DNA of 39,953 nucleotides from a virus (Duplodnaviria; Heunggongvirae; Uroviricota; Caudoviricetes), in the IMG/VR virus record IMGVR_UViG_2563366923_000006, one strand, 5' to 3'. The position numbers and the translations under genes were made by a program. Within the stretch, counting starts at the first letter, position 1; the number at the start of each line of letters is the position of its first letter. Positions 5,451-39,577 of this stretch are shown here, piece by piece. Below the pieces are notes generated by a model. The model made no database searches. It was given only the letters and a program-made list of their open reading frames with translations, and was not told the origin of the DNA.

Positions 5451-5994
5451 GCATCACTGGAAAATAGAAAAACAGCCTGAGTGGTACGTGAAAGCTGTCA
5501 GAAAAACTATCGCGGCGTTGCCGGGTGGTTACGCTGAAGCGGCTGATTGGCTCGATGTAACAGAAAACGCTTTATTCAACCGCCTTCGTGCAGATGGCGA
5601 TCAGATTTTCCCGCTGGGATGGGCAATGGTTTTACAGCGTGCTGGTGGCACTCACTTCATTGCTGATGCTGTGGCGCAGTCTGCAAATGGCGTATTTGTG
5701 TCTCTTCCTGACATCGAGGATGTGGACAACGCCGATATCAACCAACGCCTGCTGGAGGTCATTGAACAGATCGGCAGTTATTCAAAACAGATTCGTTCAG
5801 CAATTGAAGACGGTGTAGTGGAACCGCATGAGAAGACAGCAATTAACGATGAGCTGTACCTCTCAATTTCGAAGCTGCAGGAGCATGCAGCACTGGTCTA
5901 CAAAATCTTTTGCGTTTCAGAAAGTAGTGACGCCCGCGAGTGTGCAGCTCCGGGCGCCGTGGCGTGTCGTGACTGTGGAGAAACTAACGCATGA
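5443..5994 (+). CDS. CII-like phage regulatory protein (tentative), GTG start
   Basis: Position after cro; AGGAGG 6 nt upstream of GTG; family resemblance is from memory. Confidence 0.5.
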
Positions 5995-28090: not shown

Positions 28091-28116
28091 ACCTTACATT
28101 AATTTATGTCTTTCAT

Positions 28117-28139
28117 GCCCACTTCGGTGGGCTTTTTTA
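28117..28139 (+). terminator. Rho-independent terminator after moron
   Basis: GCCCAC-TTCG-GTGGGC followed by TTTTTT. Confidence 0.75.
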
Positions 28140-28153
28140 TATCCGGAGTTTAT

Positions 28154-29524
28154 ATGACGTGGAAAGACAGGCTTCAGGACGCGTCATTTCGCGGTGTGCC
28201 GTTTAAGGTTGAAGAAGAAAGTGCGGGAACAGGTCGCCGTGTGGAAACACACGAATATCCGAACCGCGACAAACCCTATACCGAAGATCTGGGAAAAGTC
28301 ACTTTCCGCCCGTCCATCACGGCTTATGTGGTGGGCGATGACTGCTTTGACCAGCGCGATCGCCTGATTGACGCGCTGAATAAACCCGGTCCCGGCACGC
28401 TTGTCCACCCGACTTACGGTGAGCTGAAAGTCTGTGTTGACGGAGAGGTTCGGGTCAGCACATCGAAAAGTGAAGGGCGTATTGTCCGCTTTGACCTGAA
28501 GTTTGTCGAAGCGGGAGAACTCTCTTACCCCACATCAGGTGCGGCGACGGCGCAGACGCTGATGTCATCCTGTTCTGCACTGGATGACTGCATCAGTGAC
28601 AGCTTCAGCGGTTTCAGTATCGATGGTGTGGCGGATTTCGTGCAGAACGACGTTATCGGTAATGCCAGCATAATGCTGGGGTATGTTTCTGATGCGATGA
28701 AAGTGGTGGATTCTGCCGTATCGGATGCCGCCAGGCTGTTGCAGGGGGATATCTCGGTACTTCTGCCGCCGCCATCGTCAGGCAAAAATTTCGTTGAGCA
28801 GGTGCAGAAAATGTGGCGTACCGGGAAACGCCTTTATGGTAACGCCAGCGACCTGGTCACCATGATCAAAACGCTTTCCGGTGTCAGCCTCGGCAGCGAT
28901 CTGCAACCGCGCGGCGTCTGGAAAACGGACAGTAAAACCACCGCCACGGCGACGCAGCAGCGTAACGTGGTTGCCAGCACCCTTCGTGCGACCGCAATCA
29001 GCGAAGCGGCGTATGCCGTCACCCGATTGCCTGCGCCAACAACTTCCGCGGTGATGCAGAATGCCGCAGTGGGGCAGTCAACAACTTCCGCGGTGATGCA
29101 GAATGCCGCAGTGGGGCAGTCAACAACTTCCGCGCAGAGCACCGGCTGGCCTTCCGTCACGCATCCGGCACTGAACAATGCACCGGCGGTGAAAAACACG
29201 GTTGACCTGCCAACGTGGGAAGAACTGACTGACATTCGCGACACACTGAATACGGCAATTGATAAGGAGTTGTCCCGTACAACCAGTGATGCGCTGTTTC
29301 TGGCGCTGCGCCGGGTGAAAGCAGATCTGAATGCGGATATCAACACGCGCCTTGAACAGTCTGCTCGGATCATTCAGCGCACGCCGGATGAGGTCTTACC
29401 CGCGCTGGTGCTGGCGGCGACCTGGTTTGATAACGCGGCGCGTGACGCGGACATTATCCGGCGTAATGCCATTACGCATCCCGGCTTTGTGCCGGTGATC
29501 CCTCTGAAGGTGCCAGTGCAATGA
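28154..29524 (+). CDS. DNA circularization protein N-like (Mu gpN-type tail protein)
   Basis: N-terminal MTWKDRLQDASFRGVPFKVE pattern; GGAG SD. Confidence 0.75.
   Translation: MTWKDRLQDASFRGVPFKVEEESAGTGRRVETHEYPNRDKPYTEDLGKVTFRPSITAYVVGDDCFDQRDRLIDALNKPGPGTLVHPTYGELKVCVDGEVRVSTSKSEGRIVRFDLKFVEAGELSYPTSGAATAQTLMSSCSALDDCISDSFSGFSIDGVADFVQNDVIGNASIMLGYVSDAMKVVDSAVSDAARLLQGDISVLLPPPSSGKNFVEQVQKMWRTGKRLYGNASDLVTMIKTLSGVSLGSDLQPRGVWKTDSKTTATATQQRNVVASTLRATAISEAAYAVTRLPAPTTSAVMQNAAVGQSTTSAVMQNAAVGQSTTSAQSTGWPSVTHPALNNAPAVKNTVDLPTWEELTDIRDTLNTAIDKELSRTTSDALFLALRRVKADLNADINTRLEQSARIIQRTPDEVLPALVLAATWFDNAARDADIIRRNAITHPGFVPVIPLKVPVQ
29037..29134 (+). repeat. In-frame 42-bp tandem duplication (2.3 copies) encoding repeated TTSAVMQNAAVGQS
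   Basis: Two perfect 42-bp copies (29037-29078, 29079-29120) plus 14-bp partial third. Confidence 0.9.
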
Positions 29525-31573: not shown

Positions 31574-32618
31574 ATTTCAGCGCCCGACGCTGGCAGAAAA
31601 TATCAGTATGCTCCGTAACGATTTATTCGCCAGGCTGGACGTCAGCGACACGCTCCGGCGCATGGATGAAGACGTGCGGGCAAAGGTGTATGCGGCGGCG
31701 CTGCATACGGTTTACGGGTACATCGATTATCTGGCAATGAATATGCTGCCTGACCTGTGCGATGAGTCCTGGCTGGCGCGACATGCTGCGATGAAACGGT
31801 GTCCGCGCAAGGGGGCCACGGCTGCCAGCGGGTATATGCGCTGGGAAGGTGTCAGCGATGGCCTGAAGGTGACTGCCGGGAGCGTGATTCAGCGCGATGA
31901 CCTGGTTCAGTACACGGCAACTGCCGATGCAACCAGCTCCGGTGGTGTCCTGCGTGTGCCGATCACTTGCTCAACTACAGGCGCGGTCGGTAACGCTGAC
32001 GACGGTACGGCATTAATCCTGGTCACGCCGGTGAATGGTCTGCCGTCTTCCGGTGTTGCAGATACCCTGACTGGCGGATTCGATACTGAAGATCTGGAAA
32101 CGTGGCGCGCCCGCGTCATTGAGCGGTATTACTGGACGCCGCAGGGCGGGGCTGACGGGGACTATGTCGTCTGGGCTAAAGAAGTGCCCGGCATTACCCG
32201 CGCATGGACATACCGTCACTGGATGGGAACGGGAACTGTCGGTGTGATGATTGCCAGCAGTGACCTGATTAATCCCATTCCGGAAGAATCAACGGAAACG
32301 GCGGCAAGACAACATATCGTGCCACTGGCCCCGGTGGCAGGCTCTGATTTGTATGTGTTCAGGCCGGTGGCACATACGGTGGATTTTCATATCCGCGTGA
32401 CGCCGGACACACCGGAAATACGGGCTGCCATCACCGCGGAGTTGCGTTCGTTCCTGCTGCGTGATGGTTATCCGCAGGGAGAACTGAAGGTATCGCGTAT
32501 CAGTGAGGCGATTTCCGGTGCGAACGGGGAATACAGCCATCAGTTGTTTGCACCGGCAGACAATATCTCCATTGCAAAAAATGAACTGGCGGTACTGGGG
32601 ACGATTTCATGGACGTGA
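31560..32618 (+). CDS. Baseplate J-like protein (Mu gp47)
   Basis: Order and size. Confidence 0.75.
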
Positions 32619-33193
32619 CAAACGATGATTACATCCGTCTGTTGTCGGCACTGTTGCCCCCCGGTCCGGCGTGGTCAGCCAGCGATCCGGCGATTGCCGG
32701 TGCGGCACCGTCATTAACCCGCGTTCATCAGCGTGCGGATGCCCTGATGCGGGAGCTGGATCCGCGCACCACCACCGAACTGATAAATCGCTGGGAGCGT
32801 CTGTGCGGCCTGCCGGATGAATGTATTCCCGCAGGGACACAGACCCTTCGCCAGCGTCAGCAACGACTGGATGCGAAGGTTAACCTGGCGGGCGGCATCA
32901 ATGAGGATTTTTACCTTGCACAGCTTGCTGCCCTGGGCAGACCAGACGCCACCATCACGCGATACGACAAAAGCACGTTCACCTGCTCATCGGCCTGTAC
33001 TGACGCGGTGAATGCGCCGGAATGGCGGTATTACTGGCAGGTCAACATGCCAGCCGCCACCAACACCACCTGGATGACATGTGGCGATCCCTGTGATTCC
33101 GCACTGCGTATCTGGGGCGACACCGTTGTCGAGTGTGTGCTTAACAAACTCTGCCCGTCGCATACCTACGTAATTTTTAAATATCCGGAGTAA
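32609..33193 (+). CDS. Tail protein (Mu gp48 / YmfQ-like)
   Basis: Position before tail fibre. Confidence 0.7.
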
Positions 33194-33196
33194 TCC

Positions 33197-33865
33197 ATGC
33201 ATCGTATAGACACGAAAACCGCGCAGAAGGATAAGTTCGGCGCGGGTAAGAACGGTTTTACCCGTGGTAATCCCCAGACTGGTACGCCTGCCACCGATCT
33301 GGATGATGACTACTTTGACATGTTGCAGGAGGAGCTTTGCAGCGTTGTGGAGGCATCCGGTGCCAGCCTGGAGAAGGGGCGGCATGACCAGTTGCTTACC
33401 GCACTTCGCGCACTGCTGTTAAGCCGCAATAATCCGTTTGGTGATATCAAATCGGACGGCACGGTACCAACGGCTCTCGAAAACCTTGGTTTAGGAGATA
33501 TCAGTGCTACAGGTGTTGCGACAGGTAGTATGGGCGGAACCGGATATGCCATATTTCCGATGATGATTGGCGGTGCACGTAAGACTTTTATTATGCAATG
33601 GGGATTGCTGACGCCTCTGAAATCAGGTGGCTATGTGAATATTAACCTTCCTGTCGCTTTTCCTACTATGGTGATGCAGGCATATGCAACACATGATAAT
33701 GCGACACTAAACACACGCCCGACAGTATATGCAATTACTACAACAAGCCGAACCACTATCACTGCGACGGCGACGTGCTTAGATGCTGGCTCAGTGGGCG
33801 CTACAGTGACACGCAGTAGTGACGATACTGCGTGTTACGGTCGTTATTTTGCAATAGGGTGCTGA
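33197..33865 (+). CDS. Tail fibre protein; constant N-terminus fused to variable C-terminus inside invertible segment
   Basis: [10 protein letters not shown]-terminus typical of e14/Mu-type fibres; recombination site inside the gene. Confidence 0.8.
33475..33498. repeat. Invertase crossover site, left (hix/gix-like; GAAAACC-TT-GGTTTAG)
   Basis: Inverted partner at 35337-35362; encodes ENLGLGD. Confidence 0.65.
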
Positions 33866-33866
33866 A

Positions 33867-34310
33867 ATGAATCTTAAATATTTTTCTCCATCTGAAAATG
33901 CGTTTTATGCCGGGGAGCTTAAAGAAAGCTATATCGCTGCTGGCTCATGGCCTTCTGATGCCTCGGAGGTTGATGAAAGTCTTTATCTTGAGTTTATCGA
34001 TAAACCGCCAGCAGGTAAGTATCGAGGAGTGGATAATGCAGGAATGCCCTGCTGGCTTGAAATTCCTCCTCCCACAGTAGAGGAAATGGCATCGAATGCA
34101 GAGAATATAAGACAGCAGCTCATTGATAAGGCAAATGTTTATATAAACAATCGTCAGTGGCCGGGAAAAGCAGCGATAGGCCGTTTAAAGGCAGATGAAC
34201 TGGAACGATATAACCTTTGGCTGGATTATCTGGACGCACTGGAACTGGTCGATACTTCCGGTGCGCCAGATATTGAATGGCCTACGCCTCCGGCAGCTCA
34301 GGCCAGATGA
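33867..34310 (+). CDS. Tail fibre assembly protein (Tfa)
   Basis: C-terminal LDYLDALELVDTS-APDIEWP motif. Confidence 0.75.
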   Translation: MNLKYFSPSENAFYAGELKESYIAAGSWPSDASEVDESLYLEFIDKPPAGKYRGVDNAGMPCWLEIPPPTVEEMASNAENIRQQLIDKANVYINNRQWPGKAAIGRLKADELERYNLWLDYLDALELVDTSGAPDIEWPTPPAAQAR

Positions 34311-34884
34311 CATCCGGCGCGGTGCTGGTATCCGTTGCCGTCACCGCGTCAATGTAATCCAGCACAGCGTTTAATCGGGTGGTTTCTGTCTGCGTCAGCT
34401 TCCTCCCGGCCTGCAATTTCAGTTGAATCAGACTAATGGAAGCCATTGCAGTATCAATCAGTGACTGACGCTGTGCTTCTGCCGCGCTTACTGCGGCGCT
34501 ATGCTGTGCCTCAGTATCTGTCACCCATTTCTCACCATCCCATTTATCGTATGGCGTTAACGGGGCGATAGTGGTTGTATTTTCGGGGTAATCACCCAGA
34601 GCTGTGATTTCTTTGGCGTCTCCCGTTTCGGTGTTATAGACGATTTCACCGCGATGGTCTGGCACATATTCCCATGAGTTTAAATCTGCCGAACGGCAGA
34701 TTGCATAACCAGCCTTATGTATACCAGGTTCATCCAGACAGGAATATGCCGGGATACCAACACCAACGGCAAGATATTCATTTGAAGTGGAAATATATTC
34801 CCGAGTTTCACCATCATAGCTATAGACGGTAATATCCCCCGCCTTCGTGGCAATAAGCTCGCTATTTAATACAGCGTTATCCAT
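34282..34884 (-). CDS. Alternative tail fibre assembly protein (Tfa')
   Basis: Shares C-terminal LDYIDAVTATDTSTAPDVIWP motif with Tfa. Confidence 0.75.
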   Translation of the reverse strand: MDNAVLNSELIATKAGDITVYSYDGETREYISTSNEYLAVGVGIPAYSCLDEPGIHKAGYAICRSADLNSWEYVPDHRGEIVYNTETGDAKEITALGDYPENTTTIAPLTPYDKWDGEKWVTDTEAQHSAAVSAAEAQRQSLIDTAMASISLIQLKLQAGRKLTQTETTRLNAVLDYIDAVTATDTSTAPDVIWPELPEA

Positions 34885-35349
34885 TATGCAGCCCTCACGA
34901 TAAAGTTAAATGCAATATTTCGCGCACGTGTTTCCGTTGATGTTCTGGCAACAAGTGATGCATCAAAATAATAATTCGCCTGTTTATATGTACCACCTGT
35001 CGCAATTGGTGTGAGATTTGGTTGCACTATTGAAGAGGTAAATGCGCCGAAAGTATTATTATTTGTCCCCGTGGTCATATCAAAAAAGCTACCTGTAATA
35101 TTTTGCAGCGTATCGCTCTGAGCACTCAATAACGCTCGCCCACTGTCCACTCCACGCCCATCATCCCAGCCACGAATAAACTCACCCCGCAGATCTGGCA
35201 GCACAAGACCGGGGTAAACCAGTGCCAGCTTCGGATAATTTTCAGCTGCAAATGGAGCGCCGTTACATTTCAGCCATCCTGTTGGTGGAGTGGCTAAAGG
35301 CCACGGAACAGGCACACCAACGGGTAATGCCGAACCTTCTCCCAAACCA
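34884..35349 (-). CDS. Alternative tail-fibre C-terminal cassette (Sv'), expressed only after inversion
   Basis: Begins at crossover (INVGLGEGSA); LPDLRGEFIRGWDDGRG tail-collar-like motif. Confidence 0.65.
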
Positions 35350-35362
35350 ACGTTTATGAAAA
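35337..35362. repeat. Invertase crossover site, right (CCAAACC-AA-CGTTTAT)
   Basis: Reverse complement matches left site around the TT core. Confidence 0.65.
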
Positions 35363-35416
35363 TGCAGAAATAGCGCGCAAATGGCATCGTTCCTGTTTTT
35401 GTCAGGAGGAGCTATC

Positions 35417-35973
35417 ATGCTTATTGGCTATGTTCGCGTATCAACAAATGACCAGAACACCGATCTACAACGTAATGCGTTGAACTGTGCAGGATGTGAG
35501 CTGATTTTTGAAGACAAGATAAGCGGTACAAAGTCCGACAGACCAGGACTGAAAAAGCTGCTCAGGACATTATCGGCAGGTGACACGCTGGTGGTCTGGA
35601 AACTGGACCGACTGGGGCGCAGTATGCGGCATCTTGTCGTGCTGGTGGAAGAGTTGCGCGAACGTGGCGTTAATTTTCGCAGCCTGACGGATGCTATTGA
35701 TACCAGCACACCAATGGGGCGCTTTTTCTTTCATGTGATGGGTGCCCTGGCTGAAATGGAGCGAGAGTTTATTGTCGAACGTACTAGGGCGGCTTTGCCG
35801 CAGCACGACAAGAAGGGAGGAACGGTGGGCGAAAGCCAAAGCTGACAGTAGAACAATGGGGGCAGGCTGGCAGGTTGATTGAATCGGGAATATATCAGCA
35901 GCAAGTCGCACTGATTTATGATCTGGGTATTTCAACGGTGTATAAAAAATTCCCTGTAGCAAGTAAACCATAG
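35417..35973 (+). pseudogene. Serine DNA invertase (Pin/Gin/Hin family), apparently frameshifted, separating the catalytic domain from the C-terminal HTH
   Basis: Catalytic domain intact to ~35790, then premature stop at 35845; the +1 frame continues as a Gin-like HTH (PKLTVEQWGQAGRLIESGI...) to 35973. Confidence 0.65.
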
Positions 35974-35999: not shown

Positions 36000-36695
36000 T
36001 TATGCACTATTTTTAGGTCTTGTAACCCGAGGTGGGAGTTGTTTGGTTATATGTTCAAGTGATTTTTTGCCCAAGATAGTTCTTTGGACAAAACTTTCTA
36101 TAGCTTCTAGCATTTGTTCGAACTCACTTTTATTCGGGCTCCAACTGCGATGTGCGGCGGCGTTTCCTGCATCAATTACTGAAGATATAACGCATGCCTC
36201 AGTGTCGCCTATGACTCCATCTTGTTTTAATTTTTCAACTTTTTCACCAAGCGGCAAACCGGGGTGAATTTGTAACAGTTCAGCAGTTCGATCAAAAATC
36301 GTCCGTAAACCGATGGACGAAAGAATGAAATGGTCAGAAGTATATGAAGAATACATTTCATTAAATATTTGAAAGAGCTGACGATCAACTGATTCAAGCT
36401 TGGATAACCATATCGGAGCTTGAAATGTTTCAGCGGCAGGATAGGTAGTGATCATATCTATAGGCGTTTCTACAAATTCACCATCACGATATTCGTGGGT
36501 AGTATGCTCACTGAAGTGTTCGTTGTGGTGATAGAAGACAGTATCACAGCCATTGCATTGGAGTAGGTGATGGTAATGGTACCCATAAACTGGATATTGG
36601 GAATCCTCCCAGCTAGTGGTTAGCTTCCCATGCACAGTGCAGTTACGTAACCCACCGCATGTAGGGCAAAGAGCCTTGAGTATTTCCTTTTTCAT
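36000..36695 (-). CDS. Cargo protein: N-terminal zinc ribbon (CxxC...CxxC) plus C-terminal helical domain resembling DUF4145
   Basis: Cys pairs C10/C13 and C47/C50; C-terminal GDTEACVISSVIDAGNAAAH resembles the DUF4145 GNxxAH motif (recalled); AT-rich. Confidence 0.55.
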   Translation of the reverse strand: MKKEILKALCPTCGGLRNCTVHGKLTTSWEDSQYPVYGYHYHHLLQCNGCDTVFYHHNEHFSEHTTHEYRDGEFVETPIDMITTYPAAETFQAPIWLSKLESVDRQLFQIFNEMYSSYTSDHFILSSIGLRTIFDRTAELLQIHPGLPLGEKVEKLKQDGVIGDTEACVISSVIDAGNAAAHRSWSPNKSEFEQMLEAIESFVQRTILGKKSLEHITKQLPPRVTRPKNSA

Positions 36696-37043: not shown

Positions 37044-37292
37044 TTAGTGAACAAACCACTCGTCAGCAGATTCCCAGGTATCTTTCAGAGTCTCCTGAAC
37101 AAAAGTTTTTGCAGAATCCTTATCTGCGGTGCGTGTAACAGAAAGGCCATCATTGCTGGTGGCTTTTACTAACACCTCAACATCGTCATAACGCTTACTG
37201 ATGCGTCGGGTTAATTCTTCCTTTAACGCATCCACAGCACCGGTTGGCATTTTAGTCATTTTTTCTTTGGCTATGCAGATTTCAATACGCAT
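37044..37292 (-). CDS. dinI: DinI-like DNA-damage-inducible protein
   Basis: MRIEICIAK ... [11 protein letters not shown] matches the DinI family pattern; GGAGGG SD. Confidence 0.8.
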
Positions 37293-37353: not shown

Positions 37354-38451
37354 TCAAGAGGTCTTATTTCTGCTCCTTTGGAGCTCTTCAAAACGATTAT
37401 GTAAAGATTTCGGATACAGTTCGGTATATACCTGCCATAGCACGTTTAATGAACGATGCCCTGTAACTTGGGCGACTTCCTCAATACTAAAACCAGCCTC
37501 AAATAAGCGACTTGCCCCTTCTCTACGCAAATCATGGTATCGCAGATCCTTAATACCTAATTTGCTTCTTACTCTCTGAAATCCCGCAGTAACAGAAGTG
37601 CTGTTATATGGAAAAATGAATTCCGATTTTTGGGGCTGTCGTTGGACGATATCCCAGGCTTCCCCAAGCAAGGCTACTTTCATGTGGTTACCTTCCTTTT
37701 TGCGTGGATCTTTCCTGTCTCTTACGAGTATAGATTTTTGTTCCTGGTCGAGATCTTCCCATCGTAACCGGCATACTTCTCCGATTCGCATACAGGACCA
37801 TACAGAAAATTTGAGGATATCAACGAACGGAATTTTTGAGCATTTATGAGTAGATCGTTGTTGAAGGCCTGCAATGAGCATGTCCAGTTCATCAGATGCT
37901 GGTCTACGATTACGACGGTTTGATTTACCAATCAAACCAAGTTTAAGTAGATATGGGCGAGCGCTTTTCGCCGGGTTTGATGTGTAATTAATTCCGTATA
38001 CAGGTTTGGCCGCATCCAGAACACTGCCAAGATAACTAACATCGTGGCTGACTGTTGCAGGACCTGCACCAGCGTTGTTTCTTAGCCTGCAATGTTCAAT
38101 TACGTCATTTTCTGTCAGTTCAGATAGTTTGATCGCGGAGATGTCACTATCCATAAGCAGTTCCAGCACATATCTTTTAGTACGGCCTGCTTTACCTCCG
38201 GCATTTGGGTCATTTAAATATTTGTGTAGTAAGTCACGGACTGTAAGTCCGTCAACTGCATTTGATGATGGAATGCCATATAGATCTAATTCCATCACTT
38301 TCTGTGTGCCCCATGTTTTGGCATGAGCATGTTTAGGGAATGTTTTGCTTTCCCTGTAAGTGATAACACCTTTTTCTTTGATAATCACATTACAGCGATA
38401 GCGTGGTGTGCCATCGGATTTTAGTCGTTTCTCTATGTTATAGTACGCCAT
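37354..38451 (-). CDS. int: Tyrosine integrase (dusA-associated type)
   Basis: 365 aa with C-terminal catalytic motifs (HDLRR ... VTGH ... Y); abuts dusA. Confidence 0.9.
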   Translation of the reverse strand: MAYYNIEKRLKSDGTPRYRCNVIIKEKGVITYRESKTFPKHAHAKTWGTQKVMELDLYGIPSSNAVDGLTVRDLLHKYLNDPNAGGKAGRTKRYVLELLMDSDISAIKLSELTENDVIEHCRLRNNAGAGPATVSHDVSYLGSVLDAAKPVYGINYTSNPAKSARPYLLKLGLIGKSNRRNRRPASDELDMLIAGLQQRSTHKCSKIPFVDILKFSVWSCMRIGEVCRLRWEDLDQEQKSILVRDRKDPRKKEGNHMKVALLGEAWDIVQRQPQKSEFIFPYNSTSVTAGFQRVRSKLGIKDLRYHDLRREGASRLFEAGFSIEEVAQVTGHRSLNVLWQVYTELYPKSLHNRFEELQRSRNKTS

Positions 38452-38539: not shown

Positions 38540-39577
38540 ATGCACGATAATCATGAAACACAAAAAATTAATCAAACCAGCGTGATGCCTGAAAAAACTG
38601 GTGTTTACTGGAATTCTCGGTTTAGCATTGCTCCTATGCTCGACTGGACGGACAGACATTGCCGCTATTTCTTGCGTCTGCTTTCCCGCAATACGTTGCT
38701 GTATACTGAAATGGTAACTACAGGGGCGATTATTCACGGTAAAGGTGATTACCTGGCGTATAGTGAAGAAGAACATCCGGTAGCGTTGCAACTCGGCGGT
38801 AGCGATCCGGCGGCGCTGGCGCAGTGTGCGAAGCTGGCAGAAGCGCGTGGATATGATGAGATCAACCTGAATGTCGGCTGCCCGTCTGACCGGGTGCAGA
38901 ACGGCATGTTTGGTGCGTGTCTGATGGGTAATGCGCAGCTGGTTGCCGACTGCGTGAAAGCGATGCGCGATGTGGTGTCGATTCCGGTGACGGTGAAAAC
39001 GCGTATTGGCATCGACGACCAGGACAGCTATGAATTTCTCTGCGATTTCATCAACACCGTTTCCGGCAAAGGCGAGTGTGAGATGTTCATCATCCATGCA
39101 CGTAAAGCCTGGCTTTCGGGGTTAAGTCCGAAAGAAAACCGTGAGATCCCGCCGCTCGATTATCCGCGTGTGTATCAACTGAAGCGTGACTTTCCGCATC
39201 TGACAATGTCGATTAACGGTGGTATCAAGTCGCTGGAAGAGGCCAAAGCACACCTGCAACATATGGATGGCGTGATGGTCGGGCGCGAGGCGTATCAGAA
39301 TCCGGGTATTCTGGCGGCGGTAGACCGGGAGATCTTTGGTTCCTCGGATATCGATGCCGATCCGGTGGCGGTAGTGCGCGCCATGTATCCGTACATTGAG
39401 CGTGAACTCAGCCAGGGGACGTATCTCGGTCATATTACCCGGCATATGTTGGGCTTGTTCCAGGGTATTCCTGGCGCGCGGCAGTGGCGGCGTTATTTAA
39501 GTGAAAATGCCCATAAAGCGGGTGCAGACATTAATGTGCTGGAACACGCGCTCAAACTGGTGGCGGATAAGCGTTAA
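38540..39577 (+). CDS. dusA: tRNA-dihydrouridine synthase A; 5' end probably element-derived
   Basis: 345 aa typical DusA; first ~35 codons AT-rich unlike the rest of the gene. Confidence 0.9.

Follow-up and report, generated by a model that had tools for sequence, protein, structure and literature searches.

Results

The window (the whole 39,953-bp stretch of DNA analysed here) very probably carries a Din-family tail-fibre inversion switch, an orthologue of the e14 P segment that lies in an SfI/SfII-like prophage at dusA and would be flipped only in trans. It is a real and ordinary system of a known type with little new in principle, Gin/Cin/Pin-type invertible tail-fibre segments having been textbook material since the 1980s. 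The locus and its surroundings comprise the following features:

32609-33193, plus strand: baseplate gene of the Mu gp48 / YmfQ family (Pfam PF10076 Phage_Mu_Gp48, E=9e-27), directly upstream of the fibre gene
33197-33865, plus strand: fibre gene Sc+Sv, an ORF with a 222-aa product
33197-33487, plus strand: Sc, constant 5' part of the tail-fibre gene, 97 codons to the crossover core
33474-33499: left 26-bp recombination site, pixL-like, CTCTCGAAAACC-TT-GGTTTAGGAGAT, core TT at 33486-33487
33488-33865, plus strand: Sv, variable cassette joined at present to Sc (Pfam PF21882 Gp53-like_C, E=2.7e-11, residues 131-222 of 222 aa)
33867-34310, plus strand: Tfa, tail-fibre assembly chaperone for Sv (Pfam PF02413 Caudo_TAP, E=1e-31)
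34282-34884, minus strand: Tfa', chaperone for the alternative cassette (Pfam PF02413, E=9e-33)
34884-35348, minus strand: Sv', tail-collar variable cassette, at present unjoined to Sc (Pfam PF07484 Collar, E=8e-12, in the in-silico fusion)
35337-35362: right 26-bp recombination site, pixR-like, TTCTCCCAAACC-AA-CGTTTATGAAAA, core AA at 35349-35350
35349-35387, minus strand: leader, MPFARYFCIFINV..., outside the segment, with its ATG at 35387
35417-35973, plus strand: Pin-type serine invertase, a pseudogene (Resolvase domain PF00239, E=5e-49) with one G lost after 35790
37354-38451: tyrosine integrase, at the element end with DinI
38540-39577: dusA, beyond the integrase at the element end

Two inverted recombination sites bound the segment

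The original prediction had placed two inverted sites of ~26 bp at 33479-33494 and 35342-35357, and a direct check of the letters bears this out: the left stretch reads GAAAACCTTGGTTTAG and the right one CCAAACCAACGTTTAT, the reverse complement of which is ATAAACGTTGGTTTGG. When aligned as inverted repeats, a comparison that had been proposed as a means of refuting the pair, the sites match at 19 of 26 positions. Their core dinucleotides TT (33486-87) and AA (35349-50) are complementary and match after inversion. Each site is made up of two imperfect 12-bp half-sites around the 2-bp core, with the half-site form nTCTCnnAAACC. The 26-bp length is that of hix sites (PMC3798978), and two inverted sites of this kind are present in the window as in the Din family (Hin/Gin/Cin/Pin).

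The pair is absent from the output of a generic repeat finder because its longest exact common run is 7 nt, shorter than the 9-nt seed; its presence was established by aligning the sites directly and by scanning for the family pattern, with shuffled sequence as a control. Allowing up to 3 mismatches over the entire 39,953-bp window, the degenerate family pattern TCTCNNAAACCWWGGTTTNNGAGA matches at these two sites only, with 0.00 matches expected from 100 shuffles. Based on this expectation, and on the identity or near-identity of the sites to those of e14, we rejected a chance inverted repeat. A shufflon or multiple-inversion system was likewise rejected: Min of p15B and the shufflons have more than two crossover sites and several alternative 3' ends, whereas the whole window holds two sites and two cassettes only.

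Inversion would exchange the 3' end of the fibre gene

The invertible segment (33488-35348, 1861 bp) carries Sv and Tfa on the plus strand and Tfa' and Sv' on the minus strand, an arrangement anticipated by the original prediction and on which ORFs and Pfam domains agree. All four ORFs are intact, and tfa and Tfa' are convergent with a 29-bp overlap. The left core at 33486-87 falls in the ORF 33197-33865, which puts the crossover inside the fibre gene, as had been proposed. In-silico exchange at the cores joins Sv' in frame with the 97-aa constant N-terminus to give a 251-aa tail-collar fibre, so that the second refutation test, which asked for this join, was also passed. The fibre product is thus 222 aa (Gp53-like_C) at present and would be 251 aa (Collar) after inversion, the alternative 3' ends being exchanged together with their chaperone genes, a convergent Caudo_TAP pair. 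In comparisons with other E. coli genomes, the DNA stops matching at ~33498, where the left site has its inner edge.

On the other side of the segment, the leader at 35349-35387 runs into whichever cassette adjoins the invertase. At present it forms a 167-aa ORF, and in silico it forms a 138-aa ORF with the Gp53-like cassette after inversion. For annotation this means that a second 3' end of the fibre gene stays hidden and that the 167-aa minus-strand ORF is no independent gene in the usual sense.

The locus is an orthologue of the e14 P segment

In E. coli K-12, the P segment of e14 and its invertase PinE were reportedly treated by Plasterk and van de Putte in 1985 and by Mehta and colleagues in 2004. 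Judged by gene order, sites and sequence identity, the locus described here is its orthologue. The e14 order ymfQ, stfP (constant plus variable part), tfaP, tfaE (minus strand), stfE (minus strand), pinE is identical to that of the window, with ymfQ in the position of the baseplate gene 32609-33193. The comparison with known sites that the original prediction called for is equally clear: the right site is identical to the e14 right site at 26/26 positions (L007, the e14 locus, 5606-5631) and the left site to the e14 left site at 24/26 (L007 3779-3804), its inner half differing at 2 positions (GGTTTAGGAGAT vs GGTTTGGGAGAA). The constant head of StfP is 95% identical in nucleotides to that of the window, its 97 N-terminal amino acids differ at 2 positions, and K-12 tfaE is 90.7% identical in nucleotides to Tfa'.

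Inversion of the e14 segment was also studied by Kirigo et al. 2025 (PMC12529663), and the repeat CCTTCTCCCAAACCAA reported there for e14 is contained in the right site of the window. K-12 stfE starts with MPFACYFFIFINV, like the leader ORF of the window, which corresponds to stfE/stfE2 of that study (PMC12529663). The two loci also differ. While e14 is a defective lambdoid element at icd, the module resides here at dusA in another prophage, SfI/SfII-like and seemingly complete. Sv is a Gp53-like sequence different from that of e14, and Sv' is ~79% identical over part of its length only. The 3' end of the invertase is another allele compared to pinE (68% identity) and is frameshifted, and the place of e14 mcrA is taken by a DUF4145 gene.

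The Mu G segment has the same architecture, gp47-gp48-S(c+v)-U / U'-S'v (minus strand) followed by the invertase. Its 26-bp gix sites, read from the Mu record, have AAACC-NN-GGTTT centres (TTATCCAAAACCTCGGTTTACAGGAA and TTCCTGTAAACCGAGGTTTTGGATAA), and the half-sites of the window fit the TTnTCnnAAACC form seen in them. In contrast, the Mu segment is ~3 kb long with a constant part of ~170 codons and variable parts unrelated to those of the window, and its core dinucleotide is TC/GA compared to TT/AA. Mu Gin is intact, whereas the window invertase is frameshifted and 75% identical to Gin once repaired.

The adjacent invertase is a frameshifted pseudogene

Alignment makes it clear that the invertase belongs to the Din family by descent. 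Its catalytic domain retains YVRVST, the N-terminal serine motif. Over its initial 367 nt the gene has 91.6% identity to K-12 pinE, and the repaired protein is 85% identical to PinE. In the Din family a Fis-bound recombinational enhancer acts in cis from the 5' part of the invertase gene, and a few loose Fis-like motifs (GN6WN6C) occur at ~nt 71, 94 and 166 of the window gene as well as of pinE and gin. The lesion is the loss of one G, GCGGGC in intact alleles reading GCGGC in the window. According to three-frame translation, the frame-0 product ends after 142 aa at the stop 35843-35845, and the HTH domain is encoded at 35791-35970 in the +1 frame, out of frame because of the 1-nt deletion after 35790. 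This is further supported by tblastn, which splits the gene between two frames, and by Pfam, which finds only Resolvase in the truncated product and Resolvase plus HTH_7 once the deletion is repaired. The window thus does not encode the functional adjacent invertase with resolvase and HTH domains that is usual for the Din family, and as encoded the cis enzyme is, to judge from its reading frames, non-functional. A second invertase was not found within the 40-kb window. As the own invertase is without its DNA-binding domain, this copy would not be able to flip alone and would depend on an invertase in trans. The original prediction is therefore right as to structure, a Gin/Pin-type segment orthologous to e14 P, and needs to be qualified as to function, a change of host range by inversion, the cognate invertase being a frameshift pseudogene. 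The original prediction made no mention of the frameshift.

The frameshifted allele is widespread. We compared 12 frameshifted loci, namely L017, which is identical to the window, and 11 independent genomes, all annotated as 'frameshifted' in RefSeq. The deletion and E149G are common to all 12, and L118F is present in 11; both substitutions sit at positions that are invariant among intact alleles. The 1-nt gap with the RefSeq annotation 'frameshifted' is found in L001, L002 and L004. Intact 185-aa alleles exist at 95-98% identity and read ...RAGFAAARQEGRNGGRKPK.... A sequencing error was rejected as the origin of the frameshift since the deletion is linked to E149G not just in the window and its identical copy L017 but in all 11 independent genomes, which originate from different laboratories. 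Sequence similar to the invertase region occurs in ~39-44% of complete E. coli genomes (2121/5426; 2380/5426). A frame-0 GTG following an SD-like GGGAGG would give a peptide of 6 aa only.

Prophages with the dead allele occur in both orientations

Orientation diversity among prophages with the frameshifted allele was rejected as insufficient proof of trans-inversion because the cassettes are mosaic, and an isogenic pair was therefore sought and found. The two prophages of this pair, L008 and L022, both carry the pseudogene and have flanks that are 100% identical over 1000 bp upstream and 3500 bp downstream. Between the cores, the 1753-bp segment of one is the exact reverse complement of that of the other. 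This comparison indicates that inversion does still occur in prophages carrying the frameshifted allele. As the pair differs by the exact flip only and shares the same dead allele, the segment in such prophages is likely flipped by a trans-acting invertase. In addition, 509 complete E. coli genomes contain the constant part and Sv' as one contiguous fused sequence; the best match to this fusion covers 100% of the query at 97.8% identity and carries the annotation of a 756-bp gene. Together with the flipped copy in the P2-like prophage L013, both orientations are thus found in nature with breakpoints at the sites. Experimentally, PinQ, PinR and PinE each invert the e14 segment (PMC12529663). 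The pair L008/L022 exemplifies in nature a switch that still flips although its own invertase is dead, and fits these recent experiments in which several Pin paralogues act on one segment.

The same segment resides in different phage backbones

The host element is an SfI/SfII-like myovirus prophage with lambdoid early genes and a Mu-type baseplate, integrated at dusA in E. coli, and related loci share the dusA junction. Scaffold KB732580.1 of assembly GCA_000351325.1 matches the window at 100% identity. No repeat of the dusA 5' region that could mark the left attachment site was found anywhere in the window, and the prophage therefore extends past the window start. A PADLOC search with the DUF4145, DinI-like and first-ORF proteins gave no matches. 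In the Shigella phages SfIV, SfII and SfI the structural module shares the backbone of the window at 97% identity. SfIV has the same short fibre, Tfa and convergent Tfa', whereas its segment is cut by ISEhe3 after Tfa'; Sv' and the invertase are missing, the segment is locked, and an O-antigen glucosyltransferase follows.

Copies of the 1861-bp segment with 99.8-99.9% identity are also present in other phage backbones, one of them turned the other way round. This opposite copy is in L013, where the invertase is intact and similarity stops inside the 26-bp sites. P2-like prophages (e.g. L013, L014, L021; phage pro483) contain the same cassette pair bounded by the same inner half-sites, the segment being 99.9% identical in L013 and ~89% in other P2-like loci. 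In contrast to the window, their constant part is a long P2 gpH-like N-terminus, giving fibres of 401-475 aa, their baseplate genes are of the P2 type, and their invertases are intact (185-197 aa) with 5' parts only 77-87% identical. The occurrence of identical cassettes between crossover sites in Mu-type, P2-type and third-type tail modules exemplifies the movement of receptor-binding tips between phages, which matters for host-range prediction and phage engineering.

Discussion

From what is known of the enzyme family, a serine invertase dimer would bind each 26-bp site, the two sites would synapse, and each would be cleaved at the central TT/AA to leave ends staggered by 2 bp. Half of the tetramer would then rotate by 180 degrees before the ends are religated. 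In the window this rotation would turn over the 1861 bp from 33488 to 35348 and join the 97-codon fibre head either to Sv (Gp53-like tip, with Tfa) or to Sv' (tail-collar tip, with Tfa'). The result would be particles with alternative receptor-binding tips and presumably a changed host range. The switch would be inert alone and would flip when another invertase in the same cell, presumably one of the Din family, acts on it in trans.

A different view is that the segment is a frozen relic, once inverted and now locked in the Gp53-like orientation in the source strain, with sites that are decaying leftovers. The frameshift and the two substitutions at otherwise invariant positions, the lack of a further invertase within the 40-kb window and the two deviating positions of the left inner half-site are consistent with decay, and truly locked relatives do exist, as seen for SfIV with its IS-interrupted segment; L005 and L006 also bear IS or other damage. 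However, we consider a relic unlikely: L008 and L022 share the pseudogene and are set apart by an exact flip alone, the four segment ORFs are all intact, the right site is indistinguishable from the active e14 site over its 26 positions, inversion of e14 in trans by PinQ and PinR has been demonstrated (PMC12529663), and invertase-like sequence is present in the ~39-44% of complete E. coli genomes noted above (2121 and 2380 of 5426). Programmed -1 ribosomal frameshifting or transcriptional slippage might instead supply a low level of full-length invertase in cis. The frameshifted allele is widespread, its sequence being identical in 12 sampled loci, inversion still happens, and in the -1 frame no stop codon interrupts the stretch that begins shortly before the deletion and runs to the natural stop. 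Against this, no slippery heptamer of the X-XXY-YYZ type occurs at or around GGGCGGCTTTG, the run of three G hit by the deletion is too short for efficient slippage, the extra changes at conserved residues fit relaxed selection, and RefSeq calls the gene a pseudogene, all of which makes such a bypass extremely improbable.

It is also conceivable that inversion chiefly serves the bacterium, the 138-aa StfE2-like fusion of the leader and the Gp53-like cassette masking outer-membrane receptors and blocking adsorption of other phages. The minus-strand leader MPFARYFCIFINV, whose ATG lies beyond the segment, is conserved in K-12 stfE and would read into the Gp53-like cassette after inversion, and in e14 the fusion protein StfE2 made upon inversion blocks adsorption of phage T2 (PMC12529663). 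Unlike e14, however, the element here still has its complete complement of head, tail and baseplate genes, with 97-98% identity to those of SfII/SfI and vB_EcoM-720R4, and a role of the fibre in the virion is therefore expected. Moreover, a search for a promoter-like site of the leader ORF found none, and the Gp53-like cassette does not match the e14 locus in blastn at E 1e-5, the C-terminal proteins being visibly divergent. A host-defence function is thus quite unlikely, and a tail-fibre switch operated in trans is the reading we prefer.

With respect to this switch, the frameshifted allele could be more than decay. The dusA lineage may have ceded its fibre switch to the invertases of co-resident prophages, or the 142-aa fragment may modulate those enzymes, e.g. 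in mixed oligomers; we regard this as a speculation that is very unlikely to hold. In either version the rate of switching would vary with the other prophages in the cell, and the near-identical 1861-bp segment in three unrelated backbones would stem from the swapping of whole cassettes by invertases between co-resident phages.

Crossover sites and fibre cassettes

Analysis of ORFs and domains bears out the content that the original prediction had given to the segment, i.e. Sv and Tfa on the plus strand and Tfa' and Sv' on the minus strand, with the crossover falling inside the fibre gene, whose ORF runs across the left site.

Features of the segment and its downstream flank
33197-33865, plus: fibre gene, spanning the left site; first 97 codons constant, the remainder (Sv) encoding a Gp53-like C-terminal domain
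33474-33499: left 26-bp site, CTCTCGAAAACC-TT-GGTTTAGGAGAT, core TT at 33486-87
33867-34310, plus: Tfa chaperone gene (Caudo_TAP), downstream of the fibre gene
34282-34884, minus: Tfa' chaperone gene, in a 29-bp tail-to-tail overlap with tfa
34884-35348, minus: Sv', second variable part, phage tail-collar domain
35337-35362: right 26-bp site, TTCTCCCAAACC-AA-CGTTTATGAAAA, core AA at 35349-50
ATG at 35387, minus: leader MPFARYFCIFINV, outside the right site
ATG at 35417, plus: invertase gene (MLIGYVRVSTNDQ...), normal resolvase-type catalytic domain (PF00239, E=5e-49)
36000-36695, minus: DUF4145 gene, 231 aa (Pfam E=9e-10), directly downstream of the invertase pseudogene
37044-37292, minus: DinI-like gene
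37354-38451, minus: tyrosine integrase
38540-39577, plus: dusA

Both site strings are present where they had been placed and align as inverted repeats, agreeing at 19 of 26 positions. Between the cores lie 1861 bp (33488-35348), and the TT and AA dinucleotides are complementary, as required for strand exchange after inversion. A degenerate site pattern (≤3 mismatches) matches only these two sites in the 39,953-bp window and nothing in 100 dinucleotide-preserving shuffles. A generic repeat finder run on the window did not report the pair, because the longest exact run common to both sites is 7 nt. In a comparison with known pix sites, part of the check that had been proposed, the right site is identical to that of e14, the cryptic prophage of E. 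coli K-12, at 26/26 positions and the left site at 24/26, both differences lying in the inner, cassette-borne half-site. The right site includes the repeat CCTTCTCCCAAACCAA, which is the one given by Kirigo et al. for the e14 P segment (PMC12529663). The ten contexts compared all retain the inner half-site GGTTTAGGAGAT, whose sequence departs from that of e14, at the edge of the cassette, which argues for a working half-site.

In silico exchange at the cores fuses Sv' in frame to the constant N-terminus, as predicted, and changes the product from 222 to 251 aa. On the minus strand the leader reads into the adjoining cassette, giving a 167-aa ORF at present and a 138-aa leader+Gp53-like ORF after inversion, for which no promoter-like site was found. 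The latter is the predicted analogue of StfE2, the leader+Gp53-like fusion of e14 that is reported to block adsorption of phage T2 (PMC12529663), a consequence other than a change of host range. A hairpin of 13-16 bp with a terminator-like score (33803-33841, GTGACACGCAGTA...TACTGCGTGTTAC) falls in the last Sv codons, shortly before the stop codon at 33863-33865.

The invertase gene is frameshifted

The reading of the locus as a flip switch holds for its sites, cassettes and in-frame fusion; unmentioned in the original prediction is the frameshift in the cis invertase. The invertase frame proceeds into ...RTRAALPQHDKKGGTVGESQS* and stops at 35843-35845, and the helix-turn-helix domain is found in the +1 frame (35791-35970). 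The window reads GCGGC where intact alleles have GCGGGC, demonstrating the loss of one G after position 35790. With this G restored in silico (35417-35973), the protein is 95-98% identical to intact 185-aa E. coli proteins. Two substitutions, L118F and E149G, also mark the window allele; neither position varies among the intact alleles, PinE and Gin. The deletion and E149G are common to 12/12 sampled loci of the allele, i.e. 11 independent genomes and L017, a locus identical to the window; RefSeq labels the invertase 'frameshifted' in all 11. Of 5,426 complete E. coli genomes, 34 combine this invertase 3' end with the DUF4145 module, and at least two of these (loci L026 and L027) have the intact form. 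No signs of programmed frameshifting were found at the frameshift.

In invertases of this family the C-terminal domain binds the recombination sites. In Hin this DNA-binding domain is also contacted by Fis during activation (PMC3798978). Thus, the 142-aa catalytic fragment should be inactive.

Megablast similarity to ordinary pinE alleles ends at ~35781-35784, a few bases ahead of the 1-nt deletion, and the 3' end is that of another allele, which shares only about 68-69% identity with pinE. This makes the gene a mosaic with a junction near the frameshift.

Inversion in related prophages since the frameshift arose

At the present fibre junction, similarity in other genomes ends at ~33498, the inner edge of the left site. 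In 509 complete E. coli genomes the constant part is contiguous with the collar cassette; the top hit to this alternative fusion (97.8% over the full 500-bp query) falls within a gene annotated at 756 bp, which is precisely the predicted length. In dusA prophages that carry the frameshifted allele, the collar cassette lies beside the invertase in the window and in loci L001, L002 and L022-L025, and is fused to the constant part in L008-L010. As the cassettes are mosaic, mixed orientations alone do not prove inversion. The comparison of L008 (strain MEI148-20EC) with L022 (strain 20KM0223N) is decisive. Their flanks are 100% identical over 1,000 bp upstream and 3,500 bp downstream, including the invertase pseudogene, and between the cores they are exact reverse complements (1753/1753), showing that inversion happened after the frameshift arose.

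Each of the two chromosomes contains three matches to a query comprising the Sv' end, right site, invertase gene and DUF4145 gene, which is compatible with the presence of extra invertase genes. Gin, Cin, Hin and Pin cross-complement one another. Experimentally, PinQ, PinR and PinE each invert the e14 segment (PMC12529663). The locus and its relatives provide natural evidence, of modest interest, for inversion in trans where a segment has only a dead invertase of its own.

Proposed mechanism and relation to known switches

By analogy with the family, invertase dimers would bind both sites and, with a Fis-bound enhancer, form a synaptic tetramer on supercoiled DNA; both sites would then be cut with a 2-bp stagger at TT/AA, followed by rotation and religation. 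Members of this family carry that enhancer in the 5' part of their invertase genes. Here such an enhancer is putative. The gene shows 91.6% identity to pinE over its first 367 nt, with a few loose Fis-like motifs at positions shared with pinE and gin. Virions would carry either of two receptor-binding tips, each served by a chaperone of its own, with a change of host range as a possible outcome.

The manner of working resembles Mu G/Gin, P1 C/Cin and e14 P/Pin, and the Mu G segment shares both architecture and site style with the window. The e14 prophage has the same layout (ymfQ, stfP, tfaP, tfaE(-), stfE(-), pinE); the constant fibre head matches K-12 StfP at all but two residues, and K-12 stfE opens with the same leader as the minus-strand ORF. 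Judged from these sequences, the segment is by descent a copy of the e14-type module and belongs to an already known kind of inversion switch, so that surprise is low. It has the sites, cores, cassette arrangement and natural inversion of the family and lacks a functional cis invertase. A multiple-inversion system is ruled out, as the window contains only two sites.

Relatives span all stages of decay, from intact (L026, L027) through the dead invertase of the window to IS-truncated and invertase-less loci (Shigella phage SfIV; L005, L006). SfIV (L029, KC814930.1 17011-19735) shares the short fibre, Tfa and the convergent Tfa' with the window. ISEhe3 stands where the window has Sv', a right site and an invertase gene, and SfIV is a locked remnant of the same switch.

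Cassettes shared between tail modules

A search of public assemblies for the exact Tfa protein yielded loci L012, L013 and L014-L021, all with an identical protein. The whole 1861-bp segment recurs at 99.8-99.9% identity in two unrelated settings. In L013, a P2-like prophage whose invertase is intact (193 aa; gene only ~77% identical in its 5' part), it has the opposite orientation, and the collar cassette forms a 428-aa fibre with a P2 gpH-like head. In L012, where the baseplate module is of a third kind (myovirus tail), the segment is oriented as in the window. Near-identity to L013 spans 33477-35355 and ends within the 26-bp sites, which indicates that whole cassettes are exchanged there. 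Versions ~89% identical occur in further P2-like prophages in both arrangements. One site-bounded cassette is thus common to three tail-module types, a finding of modest interest.

Prophage context

Mu-type baseplate genes (gp44-gp48 homologues) lie upstream of the segment and are preceded by a head and tail region whose genes show 97-98% identity to those of Shigella phages SfII/SfI and of vB_EcoM-720R4, an E. coli phage; by its sequence the carrier element is not e14. With 99.9% identity to E. coli, the dusA-pspG flank identifies that species as the host, and over this region the window is 100% identical to GCA_000351325.1 scaffold KB732580.1. PMC4482086 describes a dedicated integrase family that inserts prophages at the dusA 5' end, and the DinI-like/integrase/dusA arrangement is typical of that family. 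No repeat of the dusA 5' region was found elsewhere in the window, placing the left end of the prophage beyond position 1.

The DUF4145 gene is 100% conserved across frameshift-allele prophages. Other cargo occupies a comparable position past the invertase, namely mcrA directly after pinE in e14 and a 1.3-kb hypothetical gene in locus L003; in locus L004 an hsdR-like gene follows farther on, past DUF4145. The region looks like a hot spot for cargo or defence genes. PADLOC gave no match for the DUF4145 protein, the DinI-like protein or the first window ORF (1-462, plus, 153 aa), located where the early genes of the prophage are.

The 472-aa DNA-circularization (Mu gp43-like) gene at 28106-29524 contains a perfect tandem repeat of 42 bp (2.3 copies, 29037-29134). 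Alignments to L005 and L006 are offset at this repeat, suggesting that its copy number varies.
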